IMG/VR virus record: IMGVR_UViG_2563366976_000013
Length of the DNA: 43,386 nucleotides
Direction: 5' to 3' (one strand)
DNA from: a virus
Lineage: Duplodnaviria; Heunggongvirae; Uroviricota; Caudoviricetes
Under the pieces are notes generated by a model. The model ran no database searches, had not been told where the DNA came from, and was given only the letters and a program-made list of their open reading frames with translations. Of this stretch, positions 3,395 through 41,453 are shown in pieces. Each line of letters starts with the position of its first letter. Position 1 is the first letter of the stretch. The translations under genes and the position numbers were made by a program.

Positions 3395-6300
3395 AACGTT
3401 CTTCCAGAGACTGAACCCGCTCTTTTATCTTATCCATTTCTCTGCGCTGCCATGCTGCCTCGATATAGAATAAGAGATCAGGTCTGACCCCCCATCTAGA
3501 TCCTGCTGGCGTTATTTCAACGCGCTCAATGATGTCTTCTATTACCATCACTGGATTATCATCCTCATCAACAATGATGCTCCCGTCATTATCAGTCAGC
3601 GGCATTTCCCTTTGGCCAGTAATGACGTCATCATATACTGCGGGATAATCGTCATAGCAAAGAAAGGCATAGCGGCATGTTGTGCTTTCTTCTTCCATGA
3701 GTCCGTGAGAAATAAGAACATCACGAAGTTGCTGCGCGATTACACCATGATGTATCCTCGCCCCTTCTTCCCCCTTTATAGCGACAGCGTTCAGCCATTT
3801 ATAAGCGATATACCTGACGTCACCCCAGGCATCCAGCAATGCTTCGTCAGGAGAGACCGGCTCTGTCTTTAATGTTCCGTCACTGGTAACCACAGGATTG
3901 GAGCCAAGATAAACTATCGAGAACCTGTTTCCCGGACCACCAAGAGCATTTACATTATCAAGATAAGGTTTAACATCTCCGTTCTCAAAAAGATGTTCGA
4001 GTGCGTTATATACCGCGCGACGTGGAGTACTGCTTCCGGAACCATGCAACGTTATCATTGCACCATCTGCTGAAGACGTTGTTTCACCGCCGCTAACGAT
4101 TAATCTCTGAGCGGTAACATCATCAGACGGTACTTTCTTCGCAATAATGGCGTAATTACCCTCAAGTTTGACTTCCGCGCGAACTTGTCCTGATGTACCT
4201 GCATGGACAGTCAGTGACTGGACGGCAACATCATCTGTGAAATCAACGGGTACAGGAACCGTCCTCACGCCTGACGTCGACATAAAAGTAGGAAGCGTTC
4301 TGTTAGGAGTGGCTCCGTAGACAAAATCCCTTGAAACAAATTCTTCCTGTTTAATTTTCACCCTGAAACAATACAAATCAGCCGGGTGACCATCGTGAAC
4401 ATAAGGATATTTTCTGTTGTTATCCCCTATGCTCCATGGGTTTAGAAAGTCTTCCCCACCGAAAATGTAGTACAGCCAGTTGTCTTTGATACAAACTGAA
4501 CCAACACCAACCGCAGAGTTAACTATTCCGCCCTGATAAATCTGATCAGTAACATTAACCCACTCTACATTATCCAGACTCCACTCATTGACGTTAACTC
4601 TGGTCATAAATGTTCTTGGATAATTTCCTGCATAACGGTTATCAGGTTCTCCTCCTTCCCACTCACCAAATGCGCGCTCACTGCCAAAAATAATCAGCTC
4701 ATCGCCAACTTTGGCAAAAGGAAGGTTTGAGTGATGAACATTATTTGGGAAGCGAAGAGAATTCCATGATGTACCTAAATCAGAGCTTCTGTGCAATGAA
4801 CTACCGGGTTGAGTACTTAATGTCCCCCTGGTCGTCAGATACAGAATGCCATCATAATATTTTACACATGGCTCAGATGCATTCGCCTCATATTCTACAG
4901 GTATGCGTCTGCGAACAAAGCTACCAGGAGAACCGAAAGCATCAGAGAAATAGAGTATCCCAAGCTCGCGTGGACCAATATCACCATTATGGTAGCCAAC
5001 AGCAAAACTGTTATCGCTAATCGTCGCAAAACTGTGAATCTCAGTAACAGGAGTGCTTCCGTCAACAAAAGAAGGAATAGTTCCAAGACTGGTTTTTCTC
5101 CATGGTGACGAGTGAAATGATGTGCCAAAACTCCAGTATCTACCCTCGTTATTCTGATCCACATCCTGGGTATTTTGCGTCGTAACTGTAAAGGTATTTT
5201 TATCAATAACAGTAGTCACCGTCATATTCCCGGTAACACCTGTAACACCAGAGTTTGAGAAGTTGACAAAATCACCAGCAAATAATCCGTGATCAGTAAT
5301 GCGAATATAAGCGACTTGCTGATTTGCTGCTTTCGTTATACCACCATAAACGCGAAGGCTGCGACTCATTGGGCGATCCCACAACTCTGCAACCTGCAGT
5401 TTATTTCCTCTCACGGTCCGCGTCTCAATTACAGCAAAAAGGCGATTTCTGACAACCCCCATACTCATGCAGTGATAGTTAACTGTGGGATAGTTTTTAT
5501 GTAAATCTGTAAGCCATTCCGGCGTTGTCCAGGTCTTCCCGTCATCTCCTGAGCGAACCCATGCAACATGGAGGTTATTTACACCATGGCGGTCTCCAGC
5601 CATAAAAGGCGCATAGATGACATTGTCATATACAAACGTTTTATCCTGCGTCCAGGCGTTGTACCACGGTGTATCTGTAATTTTAAATAACTCTCCCTGG
5701 ATAAAATCTTCAGAAGCATAAAAAAGAGGCTGGCCCGGTATTCTCTCAAATAAAAAACGAGCATTTTTAAATCGACTGACATCCGGAAGAGTTGATACTT
5801 TAAAAGTAAGCCCTAATCCGTCAATTTTATAACCTGGAGATGAGGCTTCAAGGCACGCGCTTATTGCAGTGGAATCGTCATTTATACCATCACCAACAGC
5901 TCCAAAATCTTTGGGGCTAATAGCATCACGCATTTTATCCTGGAACGTTCGGTACACAGCCCCAGAACCATACTGAATAAACCAACCAAAACCACCAACA
6001 ACTCCGGAGATTGCAGCATCGACATAATTACGCATTGAGCGATTATTTACAGCGTCCTGCTCAAATGATGGATCTGCAAGGTTAGAAATTTTGTTTTGCT
6101 TTGCATCGTAATATTTTGCAAGCAAAGATGGTTTCATCAATGCACGTCTGAACCACCCAAAACATTGCTGGATCAGCATCGTCAGGTAGTCAAAGGCATC
6201 TTCATGCACTTCGGGGAAAAATTTTCCCTGATTGCGAAGGTCTGTGTCCTGCACTACATCAAGCACACGATCTATCGTAATTCGCCATCCAGTAGCAAGC

Positions 6301-7038: not shown

Positions 7039-7090
7039 AGTAATCAGGCACTGGCAAAATCCAGTGCCGGGATTGGTCTCCCGGATTACT
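7039..7090 (+). ncRNA. Conserved structured leader RNA element upstream of ant1 (three-way junction fold), followed by leader terminator
   Basis: AGTAATC...GATTACT outer stem enclosing hairpins GGCACTGG-caaaat-CCAGTGCC and CCGGGA-ttggtc-TCCCGG; near-identical copy in ant2 leader (11160-11213, minus strand). Confidence 0.45.
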
Positions 7091-7104
7091 ACAGAGGCAC
7101 ATAT

Positions 7105-7124
7105 GCCGCATAAGCGGTTTTTTT
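7105..7124 (+). terminator. Leader terminator/attenuator upstream of ant1
   Basis: Short GC stem GCCGC-ataa-GCGG followed by T7 run; analogous stem plus T7 in ant2 leader. Confidence 0.45.
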
Positions 7125-7278
7125 ATGTGTAAAGCGCACCTATTCTATGGTGGGCTGTGTGGGGGCACCGAAAGGTGCGCCGGGTTCCTTTGTAGCCGGT
7201 AAGACCAACTCTGCACAGTTCACCACCATCTGATTGGTCTCAGCGGTGGTGATTAACCTAACTACAAAGGTGATCGCC

Positions 7279-10969: not shown

Positions 10970-11125
10970 GATGGCGTCTCCACTTAGCGAATTACATCAC
11001 CACCGCTGAGACCAATCAGATGGTGGTGAACTGAACGGAGTTGGTCTTACCGGCCTAAGTGGTACCGGCGTCCTTTCGGACCCCCATTCAGCCCACCATA
11101 ATTCTGGCATGACTGTGCTATACGC

Positions 11126-11285
11126 ATAAAAAAACCACGTCTGGCGTGGTATGCGCCACTTAGTAATCCGGGAGACCAATCCCGGCACTGGATTTTGCCA
11201 GTGCCCGATTACTATGGCACAAGAGGAGTGCGATGTAAATTTACCGAAAAGGTAATGATAAACGCTAAGAAATATTAAAATCAAC
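11126..11285 (-). promoter_or_regulatory. ant2 promoter, operator (11241-11255), structured leader (11160-11213) and leader terminator (11126-11150)
   Basis: Mirror image of ant1 control region with near-identical structured element; palindrome TTACCgaaaaGGTAA. Confidence 0.5.
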
Positions 11286-24493: not shown

Positions 24494-24790
24494 TCACTCC
24501 TGTTCACTGGCCTCTTTGGCCATCTTCAAATACTGTTCAGGGCAATGCGCCATAACGCGCTGAAACAGTTCCAGCGCCAGATTGCGTTGCCCCTCATTAA
24601 ATGCCATTGCCATAGCGTCCATCGGTGAGATAGCGGAAAACACACGGCCTTTCTCCAGCACCGACCAGACAACGCGACGCCCCTGTTCACTGCTCATGAC
24701 AAAGCGAATGTCATCAATTTCACGCTGTGCCATGTCACGTTGCTTACGGGCGTTTTCTTCTTTCAGTTGATCGTCTTCGTAATCTGTCAT
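24494..24790 (-). CDS. Small head-assembly-region protein (hypothetical)
   Basis: 98 aa, ATGA overlap with portal stop. Confidence 0.4.
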   Translation of the reverse strand: MTDYEDDQLKEENARKQRDMAQREIDDIRFVMSSEQGRRVVWSVLEKGRVFSAISPMDAMAMAFNEGQRNLALELFQRVMAHCPEQYLKMAKEASEQE

Positions 24791-26466
24791 TGTGATTGCC
24801 CACCCTGACCACTAACTGCATTCGCCATAGCTGACAAAACACTCGGATCCGAAGTTTTAGCTTCGCTTAGCGTCTTGGCACCCTGTGCCGCCGCCATCCC
24901 CATCGCCATCATTTGTTGCTGCTGTTGTTGCTGTGCCCGTTGCTGGCGAACCTGCTCAACCTGTTCCTGCGGAACAATGACGGTTGGAGACACTCCGGAC
25001 ATATCAGCGAATGCATCGATCGCCTGATCAACGTTGAGTTTGTCGAGAGCTTCTGGTTTCGCTTGCGCAAGTTGACCAATGAAGTTAACCGTGGACGCCA
25101 GACTGGACAGGCCGATAGACTTCTGCGCCTGAGCCATGACGGAAATGTATTCGACCTTCAGGGGCATGCCTTCCATCGCGTCAGGCGGTGGCGGCAGCAT
25201 GTTTTTACGCACCATCATCGAGAAAGCGCGGTCAATGAGAGGATTAAGACATTCGTCGTTCAGACGCTCCAGAACCGGCCCCAACATCAGAAGTTTTTCT
25301 TCTTTCATTTCGATCACCGCTTCAACAGGCATCGAGCGGGTATTGATGTTCTGCAACATCATGAACAGATCGACAAAGTAGGCGCTGTTAATGATTTGAC
25401 GAGTGTCCTGAATGTCTGCCACCAAATCTGCTGTACTGGGGTTAACCAGATAAGCAGGCCTGAAGCCATCCTGACCAGTAATCTGATCGATATACGTGAT
25501 GTCGCCAGGAAGAAGGGAGGCGCGCTGATTCTTGAGGGAAGTCGGAGCAACCATCGGCGGATTGGTGGCTTTATCAATCAACTGCGACTTGCGCTTCTGA
25601 AGAAGCTGCAATGCCTTAACAGATCCAAGCGCCAGCATACCCGGGCATGATGATCCATAAACATCTTCGCCGTTAACTTCCCAGCGCGGAGCCATAATTG
25701 GAAACTCATCGAATCCGGACTCACGCAACAACTTGTCGTTATCGCCACCAACCTCGTAATAAACCGATTTGAATGGCTTGTTCTTGCTATCCAGCTTCGA
25801 TGTATCGCGGTCAATGTTCGGGTAAACCGAATGCATCACTTCAATCCACTTCTCGTAGGTGCCGCTTTCCCACATGCTTTTTACGGATTCGCTGACGTTA
25901 TTTAGCCCGAACTCCTGAACAAGCTGACGAACAGTCATAGAGAACTTGCGGAAACAGGTGTCCACACTGCCACGAGGTGAGTTAGCCAGGTAGTAACTGC
26001 CTATCGGGAATGGCATTGTGCGAATGATGTCCTCGTCATCCTCCAGCACCGCCATTGCACCAGTGCTGTATGTGCCGAGGCTTCCGTATAACTGCGGAAG
26101 GGACTGGTAGAGATTCGACTTATTGAACATATCGTTCATGCGGTTCTGAACTGCCTCAAGCCACAACTTAACAGGGCCATAGTCCATCATTTCAGGATCT
26201 GGCGTAGCCAGGCGAAACCACGGACGGGCGGGGCTTGTTATGCCTGACATCATGCCGCTGGCAAGAGTGCGCGCCGCCATAGTCCCGGTCGAATCAATAA
26301 TGCGTGTATTGCGTCGATCGTTACGGTTAACCTCAGAAGTCAGAAAGCGGGAACCACGCGGGTTGATGTAATCACTCAACTCGCGCCAGTGCGACTCGAA
26401 CGACTGACGCTCGCTTTCAAGTTGTGCGAACTGTTTGTTCAATCGCTCTTTAGTTGTTTCCGCCAT
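24787..26466 (-). CDS. Portal protein
   Basis: 559 aa, first large gene of head module, Gln-rich C-terminus; RBS GGAG. Confidence 0.75.
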   Translation of the reverse strand: MAETTKERLNKQFAQLESERQSFESHWRELSDYINPRGSRFLTSEVNRNDRRNTRIIDSTGTMAARTLASGMMSGITSPARPWFRLATPDPEMMDYGPVKLWLEAVQNRMNDMFNKSNLYQSLPQLYGSLGTYSTGAMAVLEDDEDIIRTMPFPIGSYYLANSPRGSVDTCFRKFSMTVRQLVQEFGLNNVSESVKSMWESGTYEKWIEVMHSVYPNIDRDTSKLDSKNKPFKSVYYEVGGDNDKLLRESGFDEFPIMAPRWEVNGEDVYGSSCPGMLALGSVKALQLLQKRKSQLIDKATNPPMVAPTSLKNQRASLLPGDITYIDQITGQDGFRPAYLVNPSTADLVADIQDTRQIINSAYFVDLFMMLQNINTRSMPVEAVIEMKEEKLLMLGPVLERLNDECLNPLIDRAFSMMVRKNMLPPPPDAMEGMPLKVEYISVMAQAQKSIGLSSLASTVNFIGQLAQAKPEALDKLNVDQAIDAFADMSGVSPTVIVPQEQVEQVRQQRAQQQQQQQMMAMGMAAAQGAKTLSEAKTSDPSVLSAMANAVSGQGGQSQ

Positions 26467-26480
26467 TTCAATGACTCCGG

Positions 26481-26687
26481 TTACTGACCAAGCAGTGTTT
26501 TACCGCTGGTATTAGCGGTTGATGTGTCGCCCTGAGAACCGGTAAGCAGCGTAGAACTACGACCAGCAGCAGCGCGACGGCGACGTGTTTCTTCGTCGCG
26601 GGCATCAACAACGGCGGCATCCTGCTCCTGTGGTGCTGCCTGAACTTCTGGTGTTGCAGGCACTGATGGTGAGCTACCCATGCACAT
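26481..26687 (-). CDS. Small hypothetical protein upstream of portal
   Basis: 68 aa; translation initiation region GGAGTCATTGATATG mirrors that of portal (GGAGTCATTGAAATG). Confidence 0.35.
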   Translation of the reverse strand: MCMGSSPSVPATPEVQAAPQEQDAAVVDARDEETRRRRAAAGRSSTLLTGSQGDTSTANTSGKTLLGQ

Positions 26688-26755
26688 ATCAATGACTCCG
26701 TACGCAATTAAATTATTACCAATTTAACCACATATGATTTATTTATCGTAGATAG

Positions 26756-26792
26756 TTGACATTTAACGCACAAATTATTACCTTTTAGGTAA
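26756..26792. promoter_or_regulatory. -35-like TTGACA and operator palindrome TTACCttttaGGTAA at terminase-portal moron
   Basis: Palindrome 26778-26792; TTGACA at 26756-26761 on plus strand. Confidence 0.4.
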
Positions 26793-27114
26793 CCAAAGAG
26801 TTCATTCCGGTTACTAACCTGACTGGCTTGTCGTTAAATTGAACAGGTGGAGTGAGCTTTTATTTTGAGCAGTACGGCGTATGGCACATGCGCCGATAGC
26901 GGTCTGGATACGTTTAAGGGGCACCCTCCCTTGCTCGGGCAAACGAACCAGGTAGCCGGAATGTGCAAGTCGAGCGGTTTTATTCCGCGCACGGGGATTC
27001 ACCATCCCGGCGATTCGGTGTGACGCCTCGGAAGAGACGAGGGTACAACGATGAGAGCATTTATGGAGCCGCGACAAAGTGTGGCGCCTTAACAGGCTAA
27101 GTGCTCTCAGCGTT

Positions 27115-27191
27115 GTGGCATTAGCTCAGTTGGACAGAGCAACCGCCTTCTAAGCGGTTGGTCGCAGGTTCGAATCCTGCATGCCACGCCA
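27115..27191 (+). tRNA. tRNA-Arg (anticodon UCU, reads AGA)
   Basis: Manual cloverleaf: acceptor GTGGCAT/ATGCCAC, D-arm GCTC/GAGC, anticodon stem ACCGC/GCGGT with loop CTTCTAA, T-arm GCAGG-TTCGAAT-CCTGC, discriminator G, CCA encoded. Confidence 0.85.
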
Positions 27192-27234
27192 GAATCACGC
27201 CTGAGGACCGTGATGCCAGAAGTTCCAGGGGCTT

Positions 27235-27277
27235 GGCGGTGATGGTTTCCCTTGAAGGCCTATCACCGCCCTTTTTA
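27235..27277 (+). terminator. Rho-independent terminator downstream of tRNA
   Basis: GGCGGTGAT...ATCACCGCC stem then CTTTTT. Confidence 0.55.
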
Positions 27278-27353
27278 CAGCAGGACGCCATTGCGATGAC
27301 TTCATGCTGTAAACCCGTACAGCCACGGAAGGCATAACTCATTGCTTCCAGTT

Positions 27354-27379
27354 CGCCCGGTTCGCCGGGCATTTTTTTG
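27354..27379 (+). terminator. Second rho-independent terminator
   Basis: GCCCGG-ttcg-CCGGGC stem then T7. Confidence 0.6.
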
Positions 27380-27394
27380 CCTGATGACCACAAA

Positions 27395-27409
27395 TTACCT
27401 TAAAGGTAT
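27395..27409 (+). promoter_or_regulatory. Operator-like site TTACCttaaaGGTAT overlapping RBS of moron ORF
   Basis: 14/15 match to palindrome family, 5 nt before ATG 27414. Confidence 0.35.
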
Positions 27410-27413
27410 AATC

Positions 27414-28262
27414 ATGAAAAACTTTAAGGTAATTAGTATGTTCGAATCGTTCAAAGAGCTGTTTTTATCTACTGCCAATACTGCCGTGCATCGAGCTAAA
27501 AACCCTGTGCTTGGTGCTTTTGTTATGTCCTGGTGCGCCTTCAACTGGAAATCACTTCTTTATCTGTTTTTTAGCAAATCAAATATAATAGATAAAATTT
27601 CATACATCTCAGATAACAGCACATGGAAAACTGTTATGTTTTATCCATGCTTATCTGTAATTACTATCTGCTGCCTATTACCATGGGTAAACAATATCAT
27701 TAACGTATGGCAAGCAAAACCTCTTGATAATAATGACTCAATCGAAAACCACCGGAAGGCAAGAAAAATACAACGTGAAACACGGCTACAGAGATTGCTG
27801 GCTAAAAAAGACATTACTTACGAAAAAGTAAAAACAGGCGCTGAAAAAAACATTCAAGACATGAAAGAGGAAATAATTCTTTCAAAAGACAGAATGGGAC
27901 AACTCACATCTGAATTGAAAGAGAGGGAGACAGAACTGCGCGCAGCACAAGCTCGTATTTTAGAATTATCTAAGGTTATTGATGAAACAACATCTAAACT
28001 AGAAAATCTAGAAAAAACTCACAAAAATTTAAAAAACGAATATGAGTCCTATAAGAAAAACATTCCTTTGGCAACAAATAATACAATTGCTAATGGGCTT
28101 GTAGGTCTAAAATCATTACAAGACTTTAATGAGTCCGTAAAGAAACTTGGCGTTACTGGAATTAACAATCCAGAAATCAGTACATTATTGAATAATCCTC
28201 TAGTAAATATAAATGGTGATTTAAATTCCACCTATCAAAGAAAATCAAAAACACAAAAGTAA
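27414..28262 (+). CDS. AT-rich moron: membrane-anchored coiled-coil protein (candidate abortive-infection/exclusion factor)
   Basis: 283 aa from ATG 27414; two hydrophobic helices then long Lys/Glu-rich coiled coil; low GC vs flanks; opposite strand to late operon, inserted between terL and portal. Confidence 0.55.
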   Translation: MKNFKVISMFESFKELFLSTANTAVHRAKNPVLGAFVMSWCAFNWKSLLYLFFSKSNIIDKISYISDNSTWKTVMFYPCLSVITICCLLPWVNNIINVWQAKPLDNNDSIENHRKARKIQRETRLQRLLAKKDITYEKVKTGAEKNIQDMKEEIILSKDRMGQLTSELKERETELRAAQARILELSKVIDETTSKLENLEKTHKNLKNEYESYKKNIPLATNNTIANGLVGLKSLQDFNESVKKLGVTGINNPEISTLLNNPLVNINGDLNSTYQRKSKTQK

Positions 28263-28265
28263 AAA

Positions 28266-29735
28266 TCATTCAAATGGGTCATAGTCTGTTATAGCCCTGC
28301 CCTGCTGCTGCCGTGGGTCATTAGTTTTCTTGGCTACCGGGAACGCAAACGTCAGCAGTAGCGCATCGCCTTTACCAGGAGAACGCCCAAGCCGCTCCTT
28401 GATATCTTCCTTCGGTTCGATAACGATTTTACCGTCCACTCGAACTTTGTACTCTGCCGCCGACAGGTCGTCCGCTGTTTCCTGGTCATCAAGCATGCCG
28501 CCCAGCCTCAGCCATGTCTTGCATGAGTTGAACATCTCCCCACGCTTGTTGAGCATCTGCGGGTCAGTAGACGCGCCACCAAACGGAACAAGTTGCCATG
28601 TACGACCCCAGCCGTCACCGATTGACTTCAGACCAGTTCCGTAACCGAAGTCGATGAACACTGCGTCAGCCTGGTACTGGTCTTCAAAGTCAGCGATACG
28701 CTTCGCCATTATCAGATCGTCAGTGGTCTTGTTGCCAGTCCACAGCACCTTACTGTGTAGCCCCTGCCGCAGGTATATCACAGCGTCATCAACGCCGGAG
28801 TATGCCGGGTCAACGCCGATTATCACCGGAGCATGTGCAACCTGCGCAGCGGTTACCACCCGTTTCATTGCCTCGTCAGTAAGACCGGTAGGGATAAACT
28901 GCAATTCAGATGCATCAGGGAATATGCCACGCACACGGATTTTAACGAAGTCGCTGTCTTCCCCGTAGTCATCAACCCATTTCTGCAACTGCTGTTTGTT
29001 GGTACCTTCCACCGTCCGACTGTCAATCTGCGCAGTTTTCCAGCGGTGTTTATACTTGCGGAAACATTCACGGAAACGTCCGGTATTACGCGTCGGGTTT
29101 CCGAACGCCACCCAGATAATCTCAGTGTCTTCGTCCGTAAGCGCACCCTCAGCAACTTCCCACACCAGATCCGCAATGTTCGACGCTTCATCGAATACCA
29201 CGATGATGCGTTTGCGCTCGTTGTGTAGTCCGGCGAATGCCTCAGTGTTGTGCTCAGACCAGGGGATTGCGTCAGCTCGCCACCGCTTGTCGTGCCCAGG
29301 ATCATTGCTGTACATCGCAGTAGCGGTACAGGTAAACCAGTCTTTCGTGATAGCAAGGTTCGACCACTTGATAATTTCCGGCCAGGTCTTCGTTCGTAGC
29401 TGGTTGTCGGTGTTGGCGGTCACCACGACCTTACAATCCTCGCAAGTGGACATGCCCCAGTTGATCAGCATTGAGATGAATGCGGATTTACCAATACCGT
29501 GACCAGAAGCGCGTGCCAGCATAAGCGGCTGATAGCGCGTCTCTGGATTCTGCAGGTGATCACGTATCTCTCGGAACGCATCGGCCTGCCACTGACGTGG
29601 ACCGGTGGCATGTGCCAGTTCAGTACCCTCTTCCCCCCACGGGAACGCATAGAGGGCATAGCCAAGCGGATCGTGAGTGAACCCTGCAATATCCTCGATC
29701 AACTGCTCTTCAGGAGATAACGCTGTATCTGTCAC
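28266..29735 (-). CDS. terL: Terminase large subunit
   Basis: Walker A-like GHGIGKS, nuclease-type acidic motifs in C-half; GTG start overlapping terS stop. Confidence 0.85.
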   Translation of the reverse strand: MTDTALSPEEQLIEDIAGFTHDPLGYALYAFPWGEEGTELAHATGPRQWQADAFREIRDHLQNPETRYQPLMLARASGHGIGKSAFISMLINWGMSTCEDCKVVVTANTDNQLRTKTWPEIIKWSNLAITKDWFTCTATAMYSNDPGHDKRWRADAIPWSEHNTEAFAGLHNERKRIIVVFDEASNIADLVWEVAEGALTDEDTEIIWVAFGNPTRNTGRFRECFRKYKHRWKTAQIDSRTVEGTNKQQLQKWVDDYGEDSDFVKIRVRGIFPDASELQFIPTGLTDEAMKRVVTAAQVAHAPVIIGVDPAYSGVDDAVIYLRQGLHSKVLWTGNKTTDDLIMAKRIADFEDQYQADAVFIDFGYGTGLKSIGDGWGRTWQLVPFGGASTDPQMLNKRGEMFNSCKTWLRLGGMLDDQETADDLSAAEYKVRVDGKIVIEPKEDIKERLGRSPGKGDALLLTFAFPVAKKTNDPRQQQGRAITDYDPFE

Positions 29736-41129: not shown

Positions 41130-41453
41130 AATCACGCCTGACGAATCGCGATTATCTCGCTATTGGTATTGCAGAGATTGCTGGACTCAGTGGCGCATGA
41201 TTTGACAATGCCGCCAGAGCTATCGCATACTGACCGCACTAGAACTTCAAAGCGGTCACCCGCACCCGATAGCTTTGCGGCTTTTTTATGCCTGCAATTT
41301 GGCATAGTCACATCCGTACAAAGGTCGGGTGGAGAGGCGTAATACAATACCCAAAAGGGGAATATGCCCGGAGCGTCTTTGAAGGCTCTAGTTGACACCC
41401 GATCACCAGCTACTAACTGGTGATTGCTAACTAAAACTTCAAAGGAGGTCATC

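Follow-up and report, generated by a model that had tools for sequence, protein, structure and literature searches.

The stretch of DNA analysed here (IMG/VR virus record IMGVR_UViG_2563366976_000013; 43,386 nucleotides (nt), hereafter the window) belongs to a temperate podophage of the phiV10/TL-2011b type (genus Uetakevirus, epsilon15-like). Between leftward genes on either side, it carries an RNA island that is transcribed rightward and includes a transfer RNA (tRNA) gene. The initial annotation had described the segment immediately upstream of the tRNA, 26814-27114, as GC-rich, hairpin-dense and non-coding. We found that this GC-rich stretch is the conserved folded core of an unannotated phage non-coding RNA family, and that the tRNA is one interchangeable insert within it. 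The conserved core, delimited with a covariance model designated R1, spans 26873-27048 and is narrower than the segment first marked. The full RNA unit, tRNA included, runs from ~26790 to a terminator at 27235-27276 and measures about 480-490 nt.

The RNA island between the portal and terminase genes

On the plus strand the unit consists, in order, of a promoter overlapped by an operator, a leader stem, the core, a stem (P7) with a hypervariable insert, a slot occupied by tRNA-Arg, a hairpin (P9) and a terminator (T1). The features of the locus are as follows.

24787-26466, leftward: portal gene
26481-26687, leftward: small gene upstream of the portal gene
26756-26784, plus strand: promoter-like site, -35 TTGACA at 26756-26761, 17-nt spacer, -10 TACCTT at 26779-26784
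26777-26793, no strand assigned: operator-like palindrome ATTACC-TTTTA-GGTAAC, overlapping the -10 and conserved as ATTACCnnnnnGGTAAT
26796-26861, plus strand: leader stem, AAGAGTTCA (26796-26804) paired with TGAGCTTTT (26853-26861), variable insert between
26873-27048, plus strand: core domain, R1 match of 142.9 bits (E about 1e-41)
27046-27115, plus strand: capping stem P7, CAAC (27046-27049) and GAGAGCA (27053-27059) paired with TGCTCTC (27102-27108) and GTTG (27112-27115)
27060-27101, plus strand: hypervariable insert of P7
27115-27191, plus strand: tRNA-Arg(UCU) with encoded CCA, called by ARAGORN and by the Rfam tRNA model (73.3 bits)
27194-27214, plus strand: hairpin P9, AUCACG-loop-CGUGAU; the same hairpin follows the slot in loci that lack a tRNA
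27235-27276, plus strand: intrinsic terminator T1, GGCGGTGATGG...CCTATCACCGCC followed by TTTTT, from the minimum free energy fold; relatives have homologous terminators
27277-27378, plus strand: conserved element of ~100 nt ending in terminator T2 (stem 27355-27370, T-run to 27378)
28266-29735, leftward: large terminase gene

Over 26700-27420 the window is 98-99% identical to TL-2011b, phiV10, O157 typing phages 9 and 10 and vB_EcoP_ZX5, the last of which matches 26800-27114 at 100% identity. The RNA is not mentioned in the vB_EcoP_ZX5 paper.

Taken 200 nt at a time, 26800-27199 has a GC content of 0.525-0.575, whereas the adjoining promoter region has 0.37 and the open reading frame (ORF) on the downstream side 0.30-0.37. 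The segment is therefore GC-rich relative to its immediate flanks but not relative to the neighbouring portal and terminase genes (0.5-0.57). Its supposed density of hairpins was likewise borne out only in part, as the fold of the single sequence is barely beyond chance. The minimum free energy of 26814-27114 was -109.7 kcal/mol (z = -1.95), with 4 of 100 shuffled sequences reaching a value as low, and the minus strand of the same segment gave z = -1.55 in the shuffle test. The putative transcript 26786-27285 gave z = -3.64. Because folding of a single sequence is suggestive at best, the case for structure rests on the comparison of relatives.

Structure and covariation of the core

Within the core the following elements, all on the plus strand, were placed.

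26875-26880/26890-26895: helix P1, with the invariant loop AUGGCACAU
26904-26907/26948-26951: helix P2, with a possible 3-base-pair extension at 26900-26902/26956-26958
26951-26969: near-invariant 19-mer GGUAGCCGGAAUGUGCAAG
26974-26988: variable hairpin P3
26994-26998/27004-27008: helix P4
27000-27003/27017-27020: H-type pseudoknot PK2 (4 base pairs), joining CACC of the P4 loop to GGUG downstream
27026-27030/27038-27042: helix P6

Both stems that had been named at the outset, GGGAT/ATCCC and CCTCG/CGAGG, were recovered as P4 and P6 and show compensatory changes in relatives. An alignment of 35 diverse cores (A2) was used to place the nested helices P1, P2, P4 and P6 together with two candidate pseudoknots. 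In A2, 95.1% of the cells formed standard pairs, compared with 27-46% when the 3' partners were slid by 1-3 columns. Eleven pairs had changed on both sides, and the number of doubly changed cells was 77 against a shuffle mean of 22.6. None of 500 shuffles reached the observed number, a count that should not be read as a probability because the sequences are related.

The R1 model was derived from A2 and gave a single real match within the window. Among the relatives it produced 101 matches in 100 viral loci at 106-165 bits and, in a set that includes metagenomic variants, 67 matches; the lowest score over both sets was 96 bits. Two larger alignments (A4 and A5) were fitted to the nested helices, with the slid controls and both pseudoknots lying outside the model. 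Here 96.0 and 96.5% of the cells were paired (slid controls, 26-45%), 12 and 14 pairs were compensatory, and doubly changed cells numbered 296 and 149 against shuffle means of 99 and 41, again with none of 500 shuffles reaching these values. The fold belongs to the plus-strand transcript, since G.U pairs are frequent on that strand only.

Of the two candidate pseudoknots, PK2 contains one covarying pair, C-G to A-U, in 21 sequences. The other, a pairing of GGCACAU in the P1 loop with AUGUGC, was chosen by RNAalifold and is unproven. The 3-base-pair extension of P2 is supported by the divergent locus L216, where it reads CAG/CUG. Among divergent metagenome members the change of U31 to C tends to co-occur with that of G90 to A. 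In the metagenome contigs L174, L182, L213, L267, L216, L242 and L261 the otherwise invariant AGCGGUC and GGUAGCCGG are altered.

The helices are thus kept by compensatory substitutions above both the shuffled and the slid controls, as in a generic test for structured non-coding RNA. We consider it very likely that the segment represents a conserved structured RNA family.

Coding capacity and known RNA families

As had been noted from the window itself, no convincing ORF covers the segment. A minus-strand frame of 87 amino acids (26814-27077) and short plus-strand frames exist, none of which is conserved in relatives. Core lengths in the 35 relatives range from 150 to 182 nt without 3-periodicity (length modulo three, 13/13/9). 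No frame is open in all 35, and 6 of them have no open frame at all. ORFs annotated in GenBank as 'hypothetical protein' overlie the RNA in mEp460 (L158, 2943-3311, minus strand), Tyrion (L005, 2211-2372) and JL22; they are probably spurious calls from stop-poor, GC-rich conserved sequence.

A covariance-model check of 26600-27450 against Rfam 15 matched the tRNA only. For 26814-27114 at E<=10 it returned nothing except one minus-strand match to a snoRNA model, which at 14 bits is noise. Neither at the gathering score nor at E<=10 was a family found for the core, in the window or in 12 related loci. The suggestion of an unclassified RNA co-transcribed with the tRNA was therefore the one that held: the segment is non-coding, its structure covaries, no Rfam family covers it, and on the strand of the tRNA it lies with a conserved promoter and operator on one side and terminators on the other. 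The conserved 12-18-mers, written as DNA or as RNA, are absent from 8 million full texts. Targeted literature searches found no description, although their coverage is limited and an earlier mention in subscription journals cannot be excluded.

Distribution and genomic contexts

Relatives of the RNA were found in >150 viral, metagenomic and genomic loci. In a sensitive blastn search, 86 of 50,697 phage records matched 26800-27114. Positions 26874-27114 are ~82% identical in the unrelated lambdoid phages cdtI, mEp460, 2H10 and Ayreon and in Stx2c-converting phages, and 26874-27036 are ~79% identical in P1, P7, D6, SJ46 and RCS47. Phages of Klebsiella, Enterobacter and Salmonella gave weaker blastn matches, as did a single phage recorded as infecting Stenotrophomonas.

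Three short anchors extended the family. The exact 18-mer GTAGCCGGAATGTGCAAG (26952-26969) is present in at least 120 IMG/VR contigs, which gave 110 distinct 300-nt variants among the matches listed. With a second anchor of 22 nt, prophages were found in Kosakonia, Phytobacter, Citrobacter, Kluyvera, Klebsiella, Enterobacter, Superficieibacter, Pseudescherichia, Pseudocitrobacter, Escherichia and 'Ca. Erwinia dacicola', and prophage carriers span at least 10 enterobacterial genera. Six matches of this anchor to non-enterobacterial genomes were rejected as chance. A third anchor, applied to metagenomes, yielded divergent members in which the 'invariant' blocks have changed as well. Among complete Escherichia coli genomes in RefSeq the element is present in 1840 of 5426, at 1920 chromosomal and 554 plasmid places, and PGAP annotates nothing under the match in these E. 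coli genomes.

Three contexts account for most of the ~150 true loci. In ~70 of them (cI-type) the RNA follows a repressor gene of the cI type at a distance of 140-150 nt and shares its strand, and in ~40 (epsilon15-type) it lies in the portal-terminase gap. Another ~20 are P1-type; in P1 itself the RNA lies between trnI and ban. In the lambdoid phage cdtI the order is the cI stop codon, a terminator, a strong promoter TTGACA-16-CATAAT with a palindrome, the RNA, a terminator and the early-left genes (a yfdP-like ORF, a YfdQ-like gene and an HD phosphatase gene). After the RNA promoter of cdtI no N-like gene was found and no further promoter was predicted. The same gene order recurs in mEp460, the Stx2c phages and WGPS2.

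Modular organization of the unit

Comparison of the loci shows that the modules of the unit are separable. A strict search recovered P7 at 88 of the 150 loci. Its inserts, 35 of them distinct and 41-176 nt long, start with UU or CU, end with AG and are otherwise hypervariable. Variants that preserve its pairing include AAGAGCA/UGCUCUU, GAGAGUA/UACUCUC, AAGAGCG/CGCUCUU and CAAU/AUUG, and 6 of 11 pairs are compensatory; the percentage of P7 cells paired is partly circular because 9 of the 12 rows were chosen for complementarity.

The stem GUUGUGG.../...CCACAAC closes the slot that follows. Of 148 unique regions, 27 carry tRNA-Arg(UCU) in this slot, and most of the remainder have an insert there that is not a tRNA. 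When the tRNA is present, its acceptor stem GUGGCAU/AUGCCAC replaces the slot stem, with the same GUGG start as the non-tRNA slot stems. The phage tRNA-Arg(UCU) is identical to E. coli K-12 argU (L291, 1024-1100) at 64 of 77 positions, and the changes in its acceptor and anticodon stems are compensated. The flank of K-12 argU gave no match to the core model, contrary to the idea that the whole block had been captured with a host tRNA-Arg gene. T-arm-like hairpins such as GGGGTTCGATTCCCC occur in the inserts or slots of L130, L101, L097, L074, L010 and L142; ARAGORN calls none of these a tRNA, and relaxed ARAGORN searches of the modules returned noise only.

In some loci a P6-like hairpin and a P7 module occur a second time, modules stand on the 5' side of the core, or cores are in tandem. 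One viral contig (L024, minus strand) has cores at 4801-4959 and 3994-4154, ~650 nt apart, the second being more divergent (113 bits). In P1 only the core is present. It follows tRNA-Ile(CAU) at a distance of 13 nt, precedes ban and is without a promoter or terminator of its own. Phage LLS shows the opposite case, in which the leader hairpin, P7, slot, tail and terminator are all present and the core is absent. Its core-less unit is housed in an unannotated gap of 629 bp between the repressor gene and a yfdP-like gene (L170, PQ299149, 31730-32359, minus strand). LLS acts as a natural 'core deletion' in an experimentally studied phage. What persists of the core in epsilon15 (L004, 2549-2622) is a stub of 74 nt (37.7 bits), made up of hairpin P1 and the 5' strand of P2. 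The stub runs straight into the T1-T2 element and is annotated in part as an RNase III site.

Promoter, operator and terminators

The initial annotation had placed a promoter near 26756. The -35 there is a perfect TTGACA; the -10 is poor and fits the consensus at only 3 of 6 positions, for which reason the consensus scanner made no call. In an alignment of epsilon15-type upstream regions the -35 and the overlapping palindrome, ATTACCnnnnnGGTAA(T/C), are kept in related loci, where the conserved TTGACA and palindrome precede the RNA. The epsilon15 record has a repressor-binding site annotated at the position equivalent to the palindrome of the window. A second copy of the palindrome, ATTACCTTAAAGGTAT, which follows the pattern ATTACC-5 nt-GGTAA(C/T), is located at 27394-27410.

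This second copy overlaps a promoter-like site, ATGACC-17-TATAAT, that belongs to the ORF at 27414-28262, an AT-rich moron of phrog_4780 (function unknown). The leader stem of the window is a degenerate version of the AAAGCGCAC...GTGCGCTTTC module of its relatives. In epsilon15-type loci the leader is a P7-like stem and matches the epsilon15 annotation 'RNaseIII, mRNA processing'.

Because its loop exceeds 8 nt, T1 was not listed by the terminator scanner. Frequencies of promoters and terminators across loci proved unreliable, as only perfect stems were counted, and inspected examples were used instead. The element between T1 and T2 contains two hairpins, then GCCCGGTTCGCCGGGC and seven consecutive T. 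It is kept in epsilon15 and most epsilon15-type loci, with AAGGTGA and the start codon of a promoter-less ORF coming 11-16 nt after T2. It could be an attenuator or an Hfq-type small RNA (sRNA). Matches of the Rfam RyhB and anti-hemB models to it were weak (E 1.5-3) and rested on the terminator alone.

A proposed processed RNA acting in trans

We favour a processed, trans-acting accessory RNA over antitermination in cis, on an analysis that leaves this reading with about an even chance. The mode of action set out here is more tentative. Release of the operator by the prophage repressor would allow a primary transcript of ~490 nt to be made. The tRNA would then be excised by RNase P and the 3'-end tRNA-processing enzymes, a step suggested by the geometry of the unit and by general knowledge of tRNA processing; RNase P is proposed because the 5' end of the tRNA abuts the 3' strand of P7. 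What remains would be a stable folded RNA of ~250 nt, made up of leader, core and P7 and ending in the P7 helix. This RNA may act in trans as an accessory 'RNA moron', its invariant loops engaging a conserved host macromolecule. Such a contact is suggested because the core contains long invariant unpaired stretches.

Action in trans fits the patchy presence of the RNA among close relatives and the movement of the core among three unrelated phage backbones. It also fits the company of tRNAs and other small-RNA modules in which the core is found, and the parallel in design with GOLLD and ROOL. Taken further, the RNA may represent an undescribed class of functional RNA of temperate enterobacterial phages, the model phage P1 included: a double-knotted domain of ~175 nt processed, along with tRNAs and hypervariable stem modules, from an 'RNA island' and acting on a conserved host machine. 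We assign this reading slightly less than an even chance. The host machine would be acted on by sequestration, catalysis or polymerase modification. Conflict between phage and host could place the hypervariable inserts under diversifying selection.

Several observations weigh against this proposal. The case for action in trans is drawn entirely from the modular presence or absence of the core and its mobility between contexts, and the promoter of the window has a weak -10. Protein genes, many of them promoter-less, lie downstream of the RNA and in its orientation in all contexts, which also fits a role in cis. Targeted variant scans found no compensatory variant for the pairing of GGCACAU with AUGUGC, and rare variants break it. 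A search for antisense targets in the window with the P7 insert, core, leader and tail gave only chance matches of 8-17 nt (E>0.1). The longest pairing with the ribosomal RNAs, tRNA and 5S RNA of the rrnH operon was 9 nt, equal to the mode for shuffled sequences.

Alternative explanations

Of the alternatives, processive antitermination in cis survives best. As with HK022 put or the Bacillus EAR element, the nascent core would bind RNA polymerase and cause read-through of T1, T2 and later terminators, and in N-less lambdoid phages it would substitute for the N protein. The layout of cdtI fits such a mechanism, with a promoter-proximal RNA, a terminator after it and early-left genes that lack a further predicted promoter. 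The carriers cdtI, mEp460, Stx2c and WGPS2 have no N-like ORF after the RNA promoter. In 42 of 127 unique loci the T-run of a terminator is followed, mostly after 11-16 nt, by a Shine-Dalgarno sequence AAGGUGA and the ATG of a promoter-less ORF, and the invariant unpaired segments would suit a target as highly conserved as the polymerase. A 2025 paper makes the independent remark that LLS, which is N-less, may rely on an RNA resembling put (PMC12315714).

Antitermination by the core is nonetheless weakened because LLS and epsilon15 keep the downstream layout without it. The N-less backbone, the terminator and the downstream genes all recur in LLS, which is core-less, and epsilon15 has lost the core and retains a promoter-less ORF behind T2. 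In P1, no terminator separates the core from ban, and in the window the downstream ORF has its own promoter-like site. Each phage has one copy, with no counterpart in the rightward operon; the core is ~2.5 times the size of put, and the HK022 immunity region shows no similarity to it by sequence or by model. We therefore regard this mechanism as unlikely.

A somewhat less probable explanation is that the structured flank is only a scaffold for expression or maturation of the tRNA, serving its transcription, folding or processing by RNase P or RNase E. The tRNA does abut the 3' strand of P7. At 47 of the 157 loci, or 45 of the 148 unique regions, a tRNA-Arg or tRNA-Ile is the neighbour on the same strand, at fixed distances; tRNA-Ile(CAU), found in 18 of the 148, lies 13 nt upstream. 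The slot stem GUGG.../...CCAC also resembles the acceptor stem of the phage tRNA. The RNA is not merely a tRNA leader, since ~70% of its members have no adjacent tRNA, and the tRNA stands on opposite sides of the core in P1-type and phiV10-type loci, upstream of it in P1. Ordinary tRNA leaders are short and unconserved, and the conservation of the core is far above the needs of such a leader. A tRNA precursor leader, as first proposed, is hence not supported as the whole explanation.

An element acting as DNA is very improbable. It might be a single-strand initiation or primosome site, a recombination joint or an array of protein-binding sites, with the junction words CACAAC and GTTGTGG as joints for module shuffling. 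Modules have indeed been reshuffled among phages at recurring junction words, and the P1 core adjoins the helicase gene ban. Compensatory changes preserve the helices, however, and the G.U (G.T) pairs frequent on the plus strand would be C.A mismatches on the other. The element, which encloses a functional tRNA and is bounded by promoter and terminators, always points in the direction of local transcription.

Least credible of all is that the segment encodes a protein (the 87-amino-acid minus-strand frame or plus-strand frames of 45-52 amino acids) or is a degenerate second tRNA: many relatives do keep the minus-strand frame open, it is called a hypothetical protein in mEp460 and others, and a few P7 inserts of other loci have T-arm-like hairpins, e.g. 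GGTTCGATTCC, but indels are not multiples of three, no frame is universally open, substitutions track base-pairing and not codon positions, and both ARAGORN and the Rfam tRNA model are negative on 26814-27114 even at relaxed thresholds.

Implications

If this account is correct, E. coli and P1, phiV10/epsilon15-like phages and Stx- and Cdt-converting lambdoid phages share a common structured RNA that annotation pipelines leave unannotated. It would give a genetically tractable entry to the role of the large tRNA-linked phage RNAs GOLLD and ROOL, and would bear on expression of the early-left operon in N-less lambdoid phages. With a covariance model of the family, prophage annotation would be rid of false ORF calls, and early or accessory regions would be marked.

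Comparison with known phage RNAs

HK022 putL and putR resemble the RNA of the lambdoid carriers, N-less phages in which the RNA is the first product of the leftward early promoter and terminators come after it. The put RNAs are ~70 nt long, have two stem-loops and occur in two copies, one in each early operon. In contrast, the core of 150-182 nt has at least five helices, is present in a single copy and also occurs where no terminator follows, as in P1. Homology to put was rejected, as the core has no similarity to the HK022 immunity region.

Species 1 and 2 of phage T4 (rnaC and rnaD) are stable structured RNAs of the tRNA cluster that are co-transcribed and co-processed with the phage tRNAs. 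They are smaller and belong to a virulent type of phage. The C4 RNA of P1 and P7 and the CI RNA of P4 are phage regulatory RNAs cut from a longer early transcript, and both are processed by RNase P. By Rfam, C4 co-occurs with the core RNA in the window, cdtI and P1. C4 differs in forming an Rfam family of its own, and its sites in the window, 7143-7230 and 11019-11103, lie away from the core. The isrK and C4 antisense pair, a P1-type immI module, is present in two copies in the window, at 7048-7230 (plus strand) and 11019-11204 (minus strand), and also adjoins the antirepressor gene in cdtI (L002, 1777-1965). The window further contains an Rfam match to sRNA-Xcc1 at 41323-41412 (plus strand; 62.9 bits, gathering score 53).

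The closest parallels are GOLLD (Rfam; Weinberg et al.) and ROOL, phage RNAs found near tRNA islands, with tRNAs sometimes lying within the GOLLD linker (PMC12286853). GOLLD has a universally conserved domain and a less conserved part, and its expression is tied to the lytic phase (PMC12286853; Kretsch et al. 2025, cryo-electron microscopy). The present RNA shares with GOLLD its encoding by phages or prophages, seen here in all contexts, and its frequent position beside tRNAs, seen at the 47 of 157 loci given above. It also resembles ROOL, an ornate prophage-associated RNA with several pseudoknots that often lies near tRNA islands and has no known protein partner. The GOLLD and ROOL models gave no match at E<=10 in the window or in the 12 relatives. 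GOLLD exceeds 800 nt, compared with a unit of ~480 nt and a core of 175 nt here, and it is found in Lactobacillales, Mycobacterium and aquatic samples, whereas the hosts here are Enterobacteriaceae. In comparison with ROOL, the RNA is smaller and is a modular string of stems with hypervariable inserts. Judged by model comparison, it is analogous and not homologous to GOLLD and ROOL, and forms a family outside both.

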